Positions 8,641 to 62,040 of a DNA stretch of 64,000 bases are shown in pieces. This DNA is from Chitinophagales bacterium. GTDB taxonomy: Bacteria; Bacteroidota; Bacteroidia; Chitinophagales; BACL12. The position numbers and the translations under genes are program-made. The stretch covers positions 424 to 64,423 of the forward strand of contig JBGAWP010000011.1 in the NCBI GenBank assembly GCA_044227505.1, read 5' to 3'. The notes beneath the pieces were generated by a model. That model saw only the letters and a program-made list of their open reading frames with translations. It was not told the DNA's origin and made no database searches. Every line of letters starts with the position of its first letter. Position 1 is the stretch's first letter.

Positions 8641-8658
8641 TTAATGGATGTAATAATT

Positions 8659-8732
8659 AACAGCCGGACCTGCGGTCTAAATGTACCGATGAACAGCCGG
8701 ACCTGCGGTCTATATGTACCAATGTACCGATG
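8659..8732. repeat. Direct duplication of an about 33-nt unit (aacagccggacctgcggtcta[a/t]atgtacc..gatg)
   Basis: Two adjacent copies read directly. The word TGAACAGCCGG recurs at 61616 and, degenerate, at 8842 and 32594. Confidence 0.8.
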
Positions 8733-8932
8733 AACAGTCAAATTAATGTACCAATGCCTGCCCGTGTTGCGAGGGGAACAGATTAAGTATGTTAAATTAG
8801 CAAATTTGGAGGCCTTCGGCCAATTAGCAAATTAGCAAATGGAACAGCCGACGATTACTTTGAATTATACATTTTAGATCTGCAAGATATTTATATTAAG
8901 ACTGAACTTTTTTTAATTTAACTTTTAATAAA

Positions 8933-8962
8933 ACTGCGACTGCGACTGCGACTGCGACGCGC
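8933..8962. repeat. Hexamer microsatellite (CTGCGA)x4
   Basis: actgcgactgcgactgcgactgcgacgc. Confidence 0.85.
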
Positions 8963-9039
8963 CCCCAGCCCCATAGGGGAGTTTACCTTTTCGTAAATTG
9001 AAATATTAATTTCGAAGCAAAAAACTCCAATGTTACAAA

Positions 9040-9075
9040 CTGCCCACTGCCCACTGTTGACTGCCCACTGCCCCC
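9040..9075. repeat. Heptamer array (CTGCCCA)n abutting the stop of the dbpA-like gene
   Basis: ctgcccactgcccactgttgactgcccactgccc. A related copy in reverse orientation lies at about 33567-33589. Confidence 0.8.
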
Positions 9076-12738: not shown

Positions 12739-12755
12739 TGGATTGCAAATGTAGT

Positions 12756-12863
12756 GAGTTCTGAGTTCTGAGTTCTGGGTTCTGAGTTCTGGGTTCTGAG
12801 TTCTGGGTTCGGGGTTCGGGGTTCGGGGTTCTGAGTTCGGGGTTCTGAGTTCTGGGTTCTGAA
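12756..12863. repeat. Octamer array GTTCKGRG, about 13 units
   Basis: gttctgag/gttctggg/gttcgggg units were read directly. The array starts 18 nt upstream of the radical SAM start codon. Confidence 0.95.
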
Positions 12864-12892: not shown

Positions 12893-12930
12893 TAATAGTA
12901 GAGACGCAATGCATTGTGTCTCTACTATTA
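12893..12930. repeat. 38-nt near-perfect palindrome (REP-like hairpin)
   Basis: The 13-bp arms of taatagtagagac-gcaatgcattgt-gtctctactatta pair perfectly, and the centre is itself nearly palindromic. Confidence 0.85.
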
Positions 12931-23512: not shown

Positions 23513-23634
23513 TCCTATGTCATATGTCCTATGTCATATGTCCTATGTCATATGTCCTATGTCATATGTCATATGTCCTATGTCATATGTCCTATGTCAT
23601 ACGTCCTATGTCCTATGTCGCGCGCCTCGCGCCT
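23513..23634. repeat. Heptamer array ATGTCMT (about 15 units), then (GCGCCTC)x2
   Basis: Read directly. It lies between the divergent genes at 23213 (-) and 23687 (+). Confidence 0.95.
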
Positions 23635-27865: not shown

Positions 27866-27953
27866 ATCCTATGTCAAATTTGCATTGTCCTTTGTCCAGT
27901 CCTGTGTCCTGTGTCCTGTATCCTGTATCTTGTGTCCTGCCTCCTGTGTCCTA
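27866..27953. repeat. TGTCC / CCTGTRT heptamer array running into the rarA stop codon
   Basis: cctgtgtcctgtgtcctgtatcctgtatcttgtgtcctgcctcctgtgtccta. Confidence 0.9.
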
Positions 27954-38519: not shown

Positions 38520-38593
<74 letters not shown>

Positions 38594-38596
38594 CAA

Positions 38597-38635
38597 ATTA
38601 ATTAGCAAATGAGTTAATTAGCAAATTAGCAAATG
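38597..38635. repeat. ATTAGCAA octamer words
   Basis: attaattagcaaatgagttaattagcaaattagcaaatg. The same word occurs at 8796-8842 and 38701-38770. Confidence 0.85.
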
Positions 38636-38685
38636 AACCCATCCTCCAAGTGAAAATATTTCTTGGGTGATGGGTTTTTCTTTTC
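38636..38685 (+). terminator. Rho-independent terminator after the tRNA
   Basis: Stem aacccatcctccaag / cttgggtgatgggtt (15-nt arms with a 2-nt internal mismatch, 13 bp paired) is followed by tttttctttt. Confidence 0.7.
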
Positions 38686-38700
38686 ATGTAAGGTAACCAT

Positions 38701-38770
38701 GATTAGAATGATTAGCAAATTAGCCCCCGCCTGCTTCGCATTCGGGCAGGAATTAGCAAATTAGCAAATG
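38701..38770. repeat. ATTAGCAA words flanking a CCTGC..GCAGG hairpin
   Basis: gattagaatgattagcaaattagcccccgcctgcttcgcattcgggcaggaattagcaaattagcaaatg. Confidence 0.85.
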
Positions 38771-40494: not shown

Positions 40495-40599
40495 TTCAAT
40501 GCCAAATTAAACAATAATTAGAATCAAATACCCATCGCAAACCTAACAGAATTCTGTAAAACCCTGCTTTTTATTTACCTTCATGTCAAAATTAACATT

Positions 40600-42075
40600 A
40601 TGGATCCCTTGGTTTACATACTGGCAGGACTAGTGATAGGTGGAATTATTATCTGGTTTGTGCGCAAACTTGTTGCAGAGCGAAATATGGTGGGCAGGGC
40701 TGAATTGGATGAAAAACGCAACCTGCTAACTCAGGCAGAAAGTAAGATACTCTTTTTACAGGAAAAACTAAGTGACATACAGCTGGCTTCCACAACTTCA
40801 GAATTGGAACTTAAGAAAGTGCAGGAAGAAAAGGAAAGAACTAATCTTTTATTGGCTACTTCACAAACTACGCTGGAAAAATTGCAAAAAGATTTTATTG
40901 AATTAAAAACTTTACAGGAAACTAATCTTATTCAAAATAATGAATTAAAAGATTATATACTTAAAATAAAATCAGAAAATGAGGTCTTAAAAGAAAAAAA
41001 TAATACTATTAAACAGGAAATTGAAGAAATTGGTGAAAAATATACAGCGCAATTCAAAAATCTCGCTAATGAGATATTGGAAGATAAAAGCAAAAGATTC
41101 ACCGAAGAAAATCAGAAGAATATTAAATTAATTCTGGAACCACTGAATAACGACATTAAGGATTTTAAGAAAAAGGTGGAAGAAACCTACGAAAAAGAAA
41201 ACAAACAACGATTTTCCTTAGAAGAAAAAATTAAGGATCTTGTTGTTTTAAATCAACAAATAAGTGAAGAAGCCAATAATCTCACCAAGGCGTTAAAAGG
41301 TCAGCGCAAAACACAGGGAGATTGGGGAGAAATGATATTGGAGAATATTTTACAACAAAGCGGATTAACTGAAGGCAGAGAATATTTCAGGCAGGAATTT
41401 ATTAAAGATGAAGCAGGAAATACTATCATGAATGATGATGGTAAAAAAATGCAGCCCGATTTTATATTACAGTATCCTGATAAAAGAAAAGTGATCATTG
41501 ATAGCAAGGTATCCTTAAGTGCATATGAAAGATATAATTCATCAGAAGAGGAGAATGAACAAAAAATGGCACTTCAAAATCATATCGCTGCCATTTATAA
41601 TCATGTTGATGAATTAAATAAAAGAAATTATTCGCAATTTGTTAAGGGTTTGGACTTTGTAATGATGTTTGTTCCGATCGAACCTGCTTATTTATTGGCA
41701 ATTCAAAAGGATAATGATCTTTGGAATTACGCCTATAAAAAACGCGTCATACTCATCTCCCCCACCAACCTGATCGCGGCAATTAAACTTATTTCGGAAA
41801 TCTGGAAAAAGGAAGAACAAAATAAAAATGCCGTTGCCATTGCCGAAAGAGGCGCAGCTATGTATGATAAATTTGTTGGCTTTGTGGAGAATTTAGTGGA
41901 TGTTGGTGATCATATCGGTAGAACACAAAAAAGTTATGATGAAGCCATGAAACAATTAAAAGACGGAAGTGGTAATTTAATTGGTCAGGCAGAAAAATTG
42001 AGAAAATTAGGTGTGCAAGGGAAAAAGGTTTTGCCTGGGACGGTAATTAATGATTCGTTGATTGAGGAGGATTGA
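40600..42075 (+). CDS. rmuC: DNA recombination protein RmuC
   Basis: It has an N-terminal TM segment and a long coiled coil. The C-terminal RmuC nuclease-like domain is QRKTQGDWGEMILENIL...PDFIL..P....VIIDSKVSL.AY...FVMMFVP.E. Confidence 0.93.
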   Translation: MDPLVYILAGLVIGGIIIWFVRKLVAERNMVGRAELDEKRNLLTQAESKILFLQEKLSDIQLASTTSELELKKVQEEKERTNLLLATSQTTLEKLQKDFIELKTLQETNLIQNNELKDYILKIKSENEVLKEKNNTIKQEIEEIGEKYTAQFKNLANEILEDKSKRFTEENQKNIKLILEPLNNDIKDFKKKVEETYEKENKQRFSLEEKIKDLVVLNQQISEEANNLTKALKGQRKTQGDWGEMILENILQQSGLTEGREYFRQEFIKDEAGNTIMNDDGKKMQPDFILQYPDKRKVIIDSKVSLSAYERYNSSEEENEQKMALQNHIAAIYNHVDELNKRNYSQFVKGLDFVMMFVPIEPAYLLAIQKDNDLWNYAYKKRVILISPTNLIAAIKLISEIWKKEEQNKNAVAIAERGAAMYDKFVGFVENLVDVGDHIGRTQKSYDEAMKQLKDGSGNLIGQAEKLRKLGVQGKKVLPGTVINDSLIEED

Positions 42076-42077
42076 TT

Positions 42078-42133
42078 TGTTCTGACATGTAGTAGATCTC
42101 CTGCGTCGACCACTACATGTTTCGGTTCTGGGC
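42078..42133. repeat. About 52-nt hairpin element, copy 1 (partner at 61666-61730)
   Basis: gttctgacatgtagtagatctcctgcgtcgaccactacatgtttcggttctg. The arms are acatgtagt.g.tc / gac.actacatgt. Confidence 0.85.
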
Positions 42134-42178
42134 CTGCCTGCCGACTGCGTCAGCGTCAGGCAGGTTCTGAGTTCTGAG

Positions 42179-42550
42179 TTCAATGCGGAGGAATATATTA
42201 CGGGTGGTCTATCCGATTAATGTTCTTTATTCCATGTTCTTTACCTGCCTGCCGCTGAAGCTGTCAGCAGGCAGGTTCGATATTATTTTTGCGTTCTGCG
42301 TTCAATACGGAGGAATATCTTACGGGTGGTCTATCCGATTAATGTTTTTTATTTTTTGATTGTTATTGGATATTATTTCTGGGTCCAATACGGAGGAATA
42401 TCTTACGGGTGGTCTATCCGATTAGCGTTTTATATTTTTTGATTGTTATTGGATATTATTTCTGGGTTCAATGCGGAGGAATATCTTACGGGTGGTCTAT
42501 CCGATTAGCGTTTTATATTTTTTGATTGTTATTGGATATTATTTCTGCGA
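42179..42550. repeat. Tandem array of four copies of an about 83-bp unit. Copy 1 is interrupted by a 10-bp-stem CCTGCCTGC hairpin.
   Basis: Unit boundaries are 42179, 42301, 42385, 42468 and 42550. The conserved core is caat[g/a]cggaggaatatcttacgggtggtctatccgatta, followed by an AT-rich half that is also conserved. Confidence 0.95.
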
Positions 42551-42620
42551 TTTCAATCAAATTTCAACGATCATGAAAGCCACTGTTCCCTAATCACTTC
42601 AACAGCGATTTATGCAATAT

Positions 42621-43589
42621 TCACGAAAAAAAACTACGTTCAACACTTAAATCCACCCCGGAATATTCCTTTTGTAATTTTTCGATTTTGTCTAACATCT
42701 TTAATTTAAATTCTTCGTGCTCTTTTAATTCCGGAAAAAAAGGTTTGTGAAGCATAGCTGTATGAATTTGTTCTAATTGCCCTATAAAGGGATAACAAGT
42801 TTCATTAATACATACCTTTTTAAATATCTCCCAGATATAATCAACTGCTACCTCATTTGGATGTACCATGTCTTTTGTATAAAACCGATAATCGCGCAAA
42901 TCATCAAGCATTATTTCGTAAGAAGGAAAATAATAAATATCTGAAAAATTATGTTTAAGTTGGTGAATAGATTGCAATAGAACAGCTTTACTCAGTGCGT
43001 TTTCAACGGCTCCATCTTTTAAATGGCGAACCGGACTCAGGGTAAAAATAATTTGTAATGAAGGATATTTTATTTTTAATTCTCTGATCAGATCGGTCCA
43101 ATCAGCAACTATTTCTTCAGAGGACAATTGTCTTTTTTCAAATAAAGAAGCGGGCATTTTATGGTTGTTTGCCACTACTTTGCCGGTATTTTTTACTGTA
43201 TACACCAAAGAGGTACCGAATGTAATTATCAGATGTGAACATTTATCCAGAAATATTTTCCCGCTTCGCACAGCATCATTCATGCGCCTGATCGCCTCCT
43301 CCTTGTCGGGATGCGCACAATTGCTGTGAAAATCAAAACTTCTGAACAAACTGCCATTTTCAAAGATCTCCATAGGATTCACCCACAATCCCTTCATTTG
43401 CCTTCGAATGGAATTCGCGAGTGAAGGTGGATTAAAAATGATTCCGAAGGGAGTGGAGAGAATATTAAATTTATTAGTTATCAGTTTTTGTGAAATGTGC
43501 TCGGAAAAACAAGAACCAATCAAATACACTTTTGAACTATGATCCATAGTTGAAGGACACGGAGTAACGGGAAACTGAGTTCTGAACAT
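42621..43589 (-). CDS. GSCFA domain-containing protein
   Basis: N-terminal LIGSCFSEHI motif, 322 aa. Confidence 0.85.
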   Translation of the reverse strand: MFRTQFPVTPCPSTMDHSSKVYLIGSCFSEHISQKLITNKFNILSTPFGIIFNPPSLANSIRRQMKGLWVNPMEIFENGSLFRSFDFHSNCAHPDKEEAIRRMNDAVRSGKIFLDKCSHLIITFGTSLVYTVKNTGKVVANNHKMPASLFEKRQLSSEEIVADWTDLIRELKIKYPSLQIIFTLSPVRHLKDGAVENALSKAVLLQSIHQLKHNFSDIYYFPSYEIMLDDLRDYRFYTKDMVHPNEVAVDYIWEIFKKVCINETCYPFIGQLEQIHTAMLHKPFFPELKEHEEFKLKMLDKIEKLQKEYSGVDLSVERSFFS

Positions 43590-43704
43590 AATGCTTTCGA
43601 AATAGATATTTAAAATAGAGTTTGCAATTTAGTATTATAATTTTATTTTTACAGGGTTAAATCAATGGTTCTATTAATTTGCTGTTAAATTAATATACTT
43701 ATAC

Positions 43705-44106: not shown

Positions 44107-44302
44107 TAGATATTTTAATTTATTTAGAATTAAAATATCTGTCAAATTCTCTTAATTACCATTGAGAATTAATTCACCTTGGTAATTTTTAAATCCAGAT
44201 CATTGTTTACTTAATCTTATTTTAATATTATTTCTTGGGATTCAGTATGATACCTTTTCTTCAATGAATATTTTTGCCATACATATTATTATATGTTTAG
44301 TA

Positions 44303-44342
44303 GAAAGGTTGTGTGAGAAATTACACAACCTTTCATTTTTTA
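44303..44342 (+). terminator. Rho-independent terminator about 200 nt downstream of the nearest plus-strand stop
   Basis: 12-bp stem gaaaggttgtgt/acacaacctttc followed by a T-rich run. Confidence 0.55.
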
Positions 44343-44507
44343 AATCCAACTAAATTTTACAATTAGTTAGCATTCGCATAAAACTCTGTTTTTAAGTTTA
44401 CAGATAACTCACCATTTAATCAGATTATTATAATTTAATATCACAACGGTATTAATACTGCACTTCTACTTTTGCCCTCATTAATTTCTAACTAAAAAGC
44501 AATAACA

Positions 44508-60797: not shown

Positions 60798-61613
60798 ATG
60801 AAAGGTTATACTCTGTTATTATTAATTGTTACCGGATCATTATTCATGGCCTGTAAAGGGAAAAAGGATAAATCGGATCAGTCAACCATTACCGACATCC
60901 CTGAGCAGCAGCCCATTGCAGTGAGCGGAATGCGCCAGGATACACTGGAAATTCCATCCGCTGACGGTTTAGTGATGCGCGTAGTGATGTATTCTATCGA
61001 TAGCACCTCACCTGTTATCGTCTTGTGTCATCAGGCTAAAATGAATAATTATGAATATGCGGAGATAGCTCCGAAATTGAATGCCATGGGTTATAATTGC
61101 CTTGCACTTGATCAAAGAAGCGGTGGTGCAATTGATATCCACGATAATAAAACAAATGCCAATGCTCTTGCAGCGAATAAAGAAACGACCTATCAGTCTG
61201 CAATTCCCGATATTGAAGCCGGGGTTAATTATGCTTACGAAACCTGGGGACAACCTGTTATACTTTGGGGAAGCAGTTATTCCGCATCCTTATGCTTAAA
61301 GGTTGCAATGGAAAATGAACATGTAAAAGCAGTTGTGGGATTTAGTCCAATTGCAAAATTTGACGATGGAACTTCTGCTGCCGATTACTTTAAAAATTAC
61401 AATACCAAACCCATTTTTATCACCTCTACCGAAAAAGAGGCCGGTGCGCTTGAGAAGGCCTTTAAACATCTTCCGGAAAATGTTTTAACCCAATACTATC
61501 CCGACACAAAAGGCACACATGGTTCTAAGGCGCTTTGGAGCAGTGATCCGGCGAATGAATATTATTGGGAAGCGGTGAGTTCTTGGCTTTCGAAATTGAC
61601 AATTGACAATTGA
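60798..61613 (+). CDS. Alpha/beta hydrolase-fold lipoprotein
   Basis: Lipobox LFMAC. VIVLCHQA and the nucleophile-elbow-like WGSSYSA. The last codons are encoded by the AATTGAC heptamer array. Confidence 0.72.
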   Translation: MKGYTLLLLIVTGSLFMACKGKKDKSDQSTITDIPEQQPIAVSGMRQDTLEIPSADGLVMRVVMYSIDSTSPVIVLCHQAKMNNYEYAEIAPKLNAMGYNCLALDQRSGGAIDIHDNKTNANALAANKETTYQSAIPDIEAGVNYAYETWGQPVILWGSSYSASLCLKVAMENEHVKAVVGFSPIAKFDDGTSAADYFKNYNTKPIFITSTEKEAGALEKAFKHLPENVLTQYYPDTKGTHGSKALWSSDPANEYYWEAVSSWLSKLTIDN

Positions 61614-62040
61614 CAATTGAACAGCCGGGATTGCGGTTGGATGATACTTTTCGATCTTTTGTTCGGAGTTCTGACATGTAGTAGATCTCCTTCGTCGATC
61701 ACTACATGTTTCAGTTCTGTGTTCTGAGTTGGAGTTCTCGGATCACGTTTGGTTTCCTCACCACTCACCACTCACCTATTGGGTTCTGGGTTTTATGTTA
61801 GTTCTCGGTTGAGGATGGGTTTTCTTACCATTCAACTCTCATCGTGAATCGTCAATCGTGAAGCGTGAGTCCGATCCTAACACGGATCAAACTCATTACT
61901 CATTACTCATTATTCATTTGGTGAATCGTGAGCCTGCCTGACGGCAGTCAGGTCCGATCCCTTCTCAGATCAATCTCACTACTCACCACTCACCATTCAC
62001 CCAATTCCCAATTATCTCTTAAATTAAAATATCTTCGTAC
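61594..62040. repeat. Mosaic of short-word arrays and hairpins
   Basis: In order: AATTGAC x4, TGAACAGCCGG, hairpin element copy 2, GTTCTGAG words, CCACTCAC words, AATCGTGA words, GGATCAAACTCATTACTCAT, a CCTGCC hairpin, then CCACTCAC words. All were read directly. Several modules are shared with 12739-13248, 42076-42178 and 8659-8732. Confidence 0.9.

Follow-up and report, generated by a model that had tools for sequence, protein, structure and literature searches.

An array of short direct repeats lies in the spacer between two convergent genes in the genome of an uncultured bacterium of the order Chitinophagales. Such an array can be read in several ways. It might be a series of small-RNA genes, a set of protein-binding sites, a dispersed element that has multiplied on the spot or a minisatellite whose sequence carries no function. 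An earlier note, made from the DNA sequence without database searches, described tandem copies of a unit of approximately 83 bp, proposed small-RNA genes or a protein-binding array and kept a neutral satellite as the fallback. Which of these readings fits the locus was examined in the whole 64,000-nucleotide stretch of DNA that contains the array, referred to here as the window (64 kb), and in the corresponding loci of relatives. The fallback is now the favoured reading, and the copy number of the array varies between strains.

The Array and Its Units

Four copies of the unit follow one another head to tail at positions 42172-42547, with spacings of 122, 83 and 83 nt. The number of copies and the length of the unit reported in the earlier note were borne out by independent means. 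Tandem Repeats Finder described 42294-42547 as a repeat with a period of 83, 3.1 copies, 95% matches and no indels (score 466). A repeat search placed in-register copies at 42172, 42294, 42377 and 42460, with identities of 73-100%, and the 35-nt core of the unit gave four matches with at most 2 mismatches versus none in 100 shuffles.

All copies are read here on the forward strand. Copy 1 (42172-42293) is an ancestral-type unit and measures 122 nt because a hairpin, ACCTGCCTGC...GCAGGCAGGT, is inserted at 42243-42275; its stem of 10 bp is perfect, exactly as had been described. Copy 2 (42294-42376) and copy 3 (42377-42459) measure 83 nt each. Copy 4 (42460-42547) has 83 nt as well, followed by TTCTG, the first 5 nt of another unit. 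If the units are phased on TTCAAT, the starts given earlier at 42179 and 42301 stand, while those given at 42385 and 42468 are off by one and were found at 42384 and 42467.

Every unit opens with TTCTGNG, and GTTCTGA heptamers lead into the array; Tandem Repeats Finder gives 2.6 copies of this heptamer on the forward strand at 42164-42181, so that the run enters copy 1. The units adjoin directly, with no variable spacers between them. Periodicity of 7 nt within the 83-nt unit is marginal (lag-7 autocorrelation of 0.36 versus about 0.3), and the idea that the unit is a decayed heptamer array was dropped for this reason. The forward strand of the array is T-rich and has a GC skew of +0.35; RNA from the minus strand would therefore be C-rich and G-poor.

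The array is real and not an assembly artefact. The full four-copy arrangement recurs in L013, an independent assembly from another sample, and a further contig, L020 (RmuC identity of 99%), matches the window as far as it goes: it includes the first two copies and the greater part of the third, and its copy count is limited by the end of the contig inside copy 3.

The Flanking Genes

The array-bearing spacer is the meeting point of two convergent genes, as the earlier note had it, and both were identified by Pfam matches. On the forward strand lies rmuC (40600-42075), which encodes the DNA recombination protein RmuC (PF02646, E 1.4e-100), and its homologues carry the name RmuC in Chitinophagales metagenome-assembled genomes (MAGs). 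On the reverse strand lies a gene of the GSCFA family (42621-43589; PF08885, E 9.9e-86). The sources of RmuC homologues with 74-100% identity are metagenomes of wastewater and activated sludge and MAGs labelled Chitinophagales or Bacteroidetes bacterium. The order of the genes is kept in relatives and runs DUF4382, DUF1345, rmuC, GSCFA, an ORF of 133 aa and a fibronectin/SprB protein. Unlike this gene order, the spacer between rmuC and GSCFA is not conserved among relatives.

A Spacer Built from Modules

The array is the last part of a mosaic. Downstream of the rmuC stop codon, the spacer consists of a 36-nt palindrome, a G+C-rich hairpin, the GTTCTGA heptamers and the four units, and GTTCTGN delimits every one of its modules.

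The 36-nt palindrome, ACATGTAGTAG...CTACATGT, also written ACATGTAGTAGATCTCC..CACTACATGT, occupies 42085-42120 and has a second copy in the window at 61674-61709. It is always preceded by GTTCTG. The same palindrome was found in the spacers of L001, L007, L013 and L015, and its identity is 94% when species with saturated synonymous sites are compared. In its behaviour it resembles a hairpin of the REP type, dispersed in the genome, and it may also serve as the terminator of rmuC. A second common palindrome, AGAGACGCAATGCATTGYGTCTCT, occurs at 12900-12923 of the window and at 5890-5913 of L015, in unrelated spacers of two species.

The G+C-rich hairpin, CCTGCCTGCCG...CAGGCAGGT, lies at 42133-42165 and is an inverted repeat of the same type as the insert of copy 1. 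The motif CCTGCCTGC has three occurrences, all in this spacer region, versus 0.14 expected. The stretch of 105 nt that holds both upstream hairpins (42076-42180) folds with z-scores of -3.2 and -3.4. Significant folding was confined to these two hairpins and to the hairpin insert of copy 1.

A further module, found at other loci, spans about 83 nt, contains a hairpin (CCACAGTG..CGCTGTGG) and has GTTC motifs on either side. It lies at 5702-5784 in L001, at 5572-5654 in L015 and at about 7154-7236 in L021, and has no Rfam match. Species whose RmuC is 84-90% identical to that of the window conserve this module, which is missing from the window's own spacer.

Heptamers are not peculiar to this spacer. 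In the window, 22 stretches between long ORFs measure at least 200 nt, and intergenic heptamer arrays are plentiful, such as TGAGTTC (15 copies), TATGTCA (15 copies) and TGTCCTG (10 copies). Arrays of up to 15 copies lie at 12755-12862, 23516-23619, 27886-27952, 8933-9073 and 61594-62001, and the heptamers seen also include ACTGCCC, AATTGAC, CTCACCA, ATCGTGA and ACTCATT. Repeats of other lengths occur as well. There is a 33-nt tandem repeat, ATGTACCAATGAACAGCCGGACCTGCGGTCTAA, with 2.3 copies (listed with 8648-8724, 8822-8840 and 38600-38769), and AATTAGCA octamer arrays lie just downstream of a tRNA-Met gene (38520-38594). Heptamer direct repeats are known in cyanobacteria, Beggiatoaceae and a few Bacteroidetes, and polymerase slippage has been proposed as their origin (PMC4679880).

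Copy Number and Unit Variants among Relatives

The copy number was compared among relatives, listed here by the identity of their RmuC to that of the window. The counts were made in short-read assemblies, in which repeats can be collapsed: four copies in a spacer of 545 bp in the window and L013 (100% and 99%), three copies in a spacer of 468 bp in L019 (99%) and one copy in the loci with about 90% identity. The last group has two forms of spacer. In L001-L004, L009 and L021, the spacer measures 476 bp and its single copy is without the hairpin insert; in L007, L008 and L010-L012, the spacer measures 265 bp and the single copy has the insert. No copy is present in the 67-bp spacer of L014 (86%) or in the 1-bp spacer of L017 (74%). 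The spacer of L015 (84%) contains other modules and a weak look-alike of the unit, part of which closely resembles the AT-rich half of copies 2-4 (25.7 bits).

In the sister species, the single copy occupies the same site and is a diverged form of the unit. Copy 1 of the array is orthologous to these copies, both to the copy of L007 with the hairpin and to that of L001 without it. The unit is therefore old enough to be common to two or three sister species. Among the relatives compared, tandem amplification occurs only in the species of the window.

Close strains differ within the array itself. Where the window has copies 3 and 4, L019 has a single unit, and it also has one extra heptamer (three GTTCTGA before the array versus two in the window). 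Despite 99% RmuC identity, the core of its copy 1 differs at many positions from the GGAGGAAAATTACCCGGGGCGTCGATTGTTTAAT of the window. Copy 1 of the window carries the core of copies 2-4, and copy 1 of L019 is closer to the sister species. From this pattern, gene conversion between copies is inferred.

The unit was also sought away from this site. Over the 64-kb window and the related loci, a profile HMM (nhmmer --max) found no copy beyond the array and its orthologues. A covariance model built from the units, a check that the earlier note had proposed, was run on 135 kb comprising the window and related loci and returned only the array and its orthologous copies. The unit had no blastn match in phage and plasmid collections. 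Scans of genome, metagenome and viral contig collections with exact patterns gave 0 matches. These scans are uninformative on distribution because they also missed L009 and L021, JGI records known to be positive; the same degenerate pattern does match the fetched loci, including these two.

Conservation of the Unit

The window and L013 differ at a single position in the 460 nt across the array (42113-42572), versus 27 positions in the 1476 nt of rmuC and 7-11 per 200 nt in GSCFA. Either constraint or a recent recombination tract could account for this low divergence. In comparisons between species, 79-80% of the aligned columns of the unit are identical, versus 33-41% of the four-fold degenerate sites, which are near saturation. 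The unit is nevertheless not special, since three ordinary spacers nearby (40495-40599, 43590-43704 and 44107-44507) are 78-87% identical to those of L001 and L007. An argument from conservation beyond the neutral level to function was rejected on this ground; the unit is no better kept than the spacers around it. Within the unit, the 5' part, GTTCAAKRCGGAGGAAWAT, is the best conserved across species, and AT-rich pieces are also kept. Compared with the synonymous sites of the flanking genes, non-coding spacers in general appear to be much better preserved.

A Probable Young Minisatellite between Convergent Genes

The array is best read as a young, lineage-restricted minisatellite (variable number tandem repeat, VNTR) between convergent genes, and we put the probability of this reading at roughly three in four. 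A single intergenic module of about 83 nt would already have been present in the rmuC-GSCFA spacer of the ancestor shared with the sister species, with GTTCTGN heptamer repeats at either end. In the lineage of the window, it would then have been amplified to three or four head-to-tail copies, presumably through slippage during replication or through unequal recombination, in either case at the heptamers beside it, and gene conversion between the copies may have followed. The heptamers at the unit ends would have offered the substrate for slipped mispairing or unequal exchange. The array probably has no function tied to its sequence. If it has any role, this would be at most to lengthen and insulate the 3' spacer between the convergent genes.

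Alternative Readings

The array might instead be a functional element of the spacer at the level of DNA or RNA, either as phased sites for a protein or as a place where Rho loads on the minus-strand transcript and keeps the convergent units apart. A unit of 83 nt is close to 8 x 10.5 bp, and successive sites would thus face the same side of the helix. As described, conservation is highest in the 5' part of the unit, and divergence of the array between two strains is very low. RNA from the minus strand, besides being C-rich, G-poor and A-rich, is essentially unstructured (-6.9 kcal/mol, z -0.06), and a terminator scan revealed no evident hairpin terminator directly downstream of GSCFA. These points are all compositional or indirect. 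They are met by the finding that the repeat search revealed no dyad-symmetric site in the unit. The sister species, moreover, manage with one copy, relatives further away have spacers of 1-67 bp, and the copy number varies among strains that are 99% related. An element of this kind is unlikely. As far as the sequence can tell, the protein-binding array of the earlier note appears unsupported, as no positive evidence for it, or for the loading of Rho, was found.

The mosaic nature of the spacer brings another reading to mind, namely that the unit is a mobile or dispersed repeat of the REP/BIME or MITE type, a module copied to many intergenic sites. The modules of the spacer are indeed separated by heptamers, and the 36-nt palindrome, present twice in the window and in related spacers and so similar between species, is a dispersed element in its behaviour. 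The look-alike in L015 of the AT-rich half of copies 2-4 also points in this direction, and the BIME-2 elements of E. coli likewise form tandem arrays at the 3' ends of genes. The unit itself, however, was found nowhere but at this locus of the window and at the orthologous position in the relatives searched. Copies 2-4 are free of palindromes, neither terminal inverted repeats nor a target-site duplication are present, and the phage and plasmid collections contained no match. The reading is quite unlikely for the unit, even if it suits the neighbouring 36-nt palindrome.

A more general proposal is that the unit is a functional module, as a source of tandem short transcripts or as phased sites for a protein that reads GTTCTGN-GTTCAAKRCGGAGGAAWAT, and that its copy number tunes the expression or termination of rmuC and GSCFA. 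Such a function might perhaps extend to the whole heptamer-delimited spacer mosaic of the lineage. We consider this improbable, and more so than either of the readings above.

The least probable of the readings weighed here is the one with which the earlier note began. On this reading, tandem small-RNA genes, each unit would be transcribed independently, its AT-rich half supplying the promoter and its core, richer in G+C, the RNA, in the manner of the cyanobacterial NsiR1 array. There are precedents for small RNAs in tandem direct repeats, namely NsiR1 and the repeat arrays of Trichodesmium (PMC6596454). A run of T follows each core. A perfect match to the Bacteroidetes -7 motif TAnnTTTG, TATTTTTG, lies at 42284-42291, about 8-10 nt ahead of the copy-2 core. 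Matches at five of the six positions number three in all, and TATTTCTG is found at the equivalent places before copies 3 and 4.

These signals do not rise above chance. The window contains 79 perfect TAnnTTTG matches on both strands, and about 0.7 is therefore expected in the spacer. No -33 TTTG lies at the proper distance from any match, and the motif is missing from the orthologous single copies of L001 and L007, so the promoter-like character once ascribed to the AT-rich half comes down to a single chance-level motif that relatives do not share. A generic sigma-70 scan found nothing within the units. Terminator-like sites numbered 2, versus 1.0 +/- 1.1 in shuffled sequences, with a weak stem of 6 pairs in copies 1 and 2. 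Neither a promoter nor a terminator hairpin with a U-tract was present in every unit.

The RNA itself left no better trace. The whole unit folds with -17.7 kcal/mol on the plus strand (z -1.18), and its minus-strand value is the one given above. The core alone has z-scores of +0.13 and +0.26, near those of shuffled sequences; the small core hairpin proposed earlier does exist as a weak fold, but it is no better than that of shuffled sequence. RNAalifold was run on seven variants of the unit, namely the four of the window, the first copy of L019 and the one copy each from L001 and L007. The consensus energy was -3.1 kcal/mol on the plus strand, where the number of compensatory pairs was 0, and no pairs formed on the minus strand. 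The 3' half of the core diverges between strains, even those that are 99% related, and between species without compensation. No RNA sequence or structure was found to be conserved across species, and the unit is absent at 86% and 74% RmuC identity. A search of Rfam over the region yielded no match at gathering thresholds and only noise at E values up to 10 (best E > 1), and the spacer of L001 gave only noise at gathering and permissive thresholds. The sole Rfam match in the 64-kb window is the tRNA-Met at 38520. Tandem small-RNA genes thus fail in the Rfam search, in the folding tests and in the search for conserved or covarying structure on either strand.

The remaining candidates can be dealt with briefly. 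An origin from a tRNA or tRNA fragment was rejected because ARAGORN finds only the tRNA-Met at 38520, and a coding reading because 83 nt is not a multiple of 3 and the sole ORF (58 aa) arose by chance and has a start codon that is absent in relatives. An iteron array or replication origin fails because the neighbours rmuC, GSCFA, DUF1345 and DUF4382 stand in a conserved chromosomal order; there is no adjacent initiator gene, and the unit has 83 nt versus about 17-22 bp for iterons. A CRISPR or TIGR-type array was rejected because the units abut and no unique spacers separate the repeats.

Relation to Known Repeat Systems

Bacterial minisatellites, or VNTR loci, are intergenic repeats of tens of base pairs that are used for MLVA typing. 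The array resembles them in that head-to-tail units of 83 nt lie in a non-coding spacer (the class spans about 10-100 bp), in its copy number, with three versus four copies between close strains and one in sister species (counted in short-read assemblies), in the partial homogenisation of its copies and in having no coding or RNA-gene signature. It differs in the hairpin insert of copy 1 and in the heptamer microsatellites that bound the unit and probably seed the amplification. It is also known from metagenome assemblies and not from typed isolates.

The heptamers link the locus to the LSSR/STRR repeats that Mrazek (2007), as related by MacGregor (2015; PMC4679880), described with heptamer units in cyanobacteria, Beggiatoaceae and some Bacteroidetes. 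The diverse intergenic heptamer arrays of the window and the GTTCTGN count that varies between strains are alike. The array itself, in contrast, has a period of 83 nt with no clear internal 7-nt periodicity. The GTTCTGN heptamers are likely to be the context and recombination substrate of the array and not its repeat unit.

Likeness to REP/BIME elements lies in the mosaic of hairpins and motifs at the 3' ends of convergent genes, which is sometimes tandem. The unit nevertheless has no sequence relationship with them; a palindrome reaches the array only through the insert of copy 1, and the unit is not dispersed within the window and related loci, whereas the neighbouring 36-nt palindrome does fit. 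NsiR1 of heterocystous cyanobacteria is comparable as a set of intergenic tandem direct repeats of roughly similar size. According to the account of Ionescu (2010) given in PMC6596454, each NsiR1 repeat has a regulated promoter and a terminator, and the repeats are conserved in at least 19 other cyanobacteria. The signals of the present array, in contrast, are at the level of chance, no structure is conserved and the unit is restricted to one narrow clade. If each unit were transcribed, this would be a first example of an NsiR1-like tandem small-RNA array in Bacteroidota, and no finding points there.

As a minisatellite, the array carries little biological weight and may serve as a strain-typing marker for the wastewater Chitinophagales population. 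Its broader context is a genome whose spacers are assembled from diverse heptamer arrays and common hairpin modules. The repeats also explain why short-read contigs often break just after rmuC. Four short-read contigs of relatives (L005, L006, L016 and L018) end within tens of bases 3' of the rmuC stop codon, which is consistent with assembly breaks because the spacer is rich in repeats.
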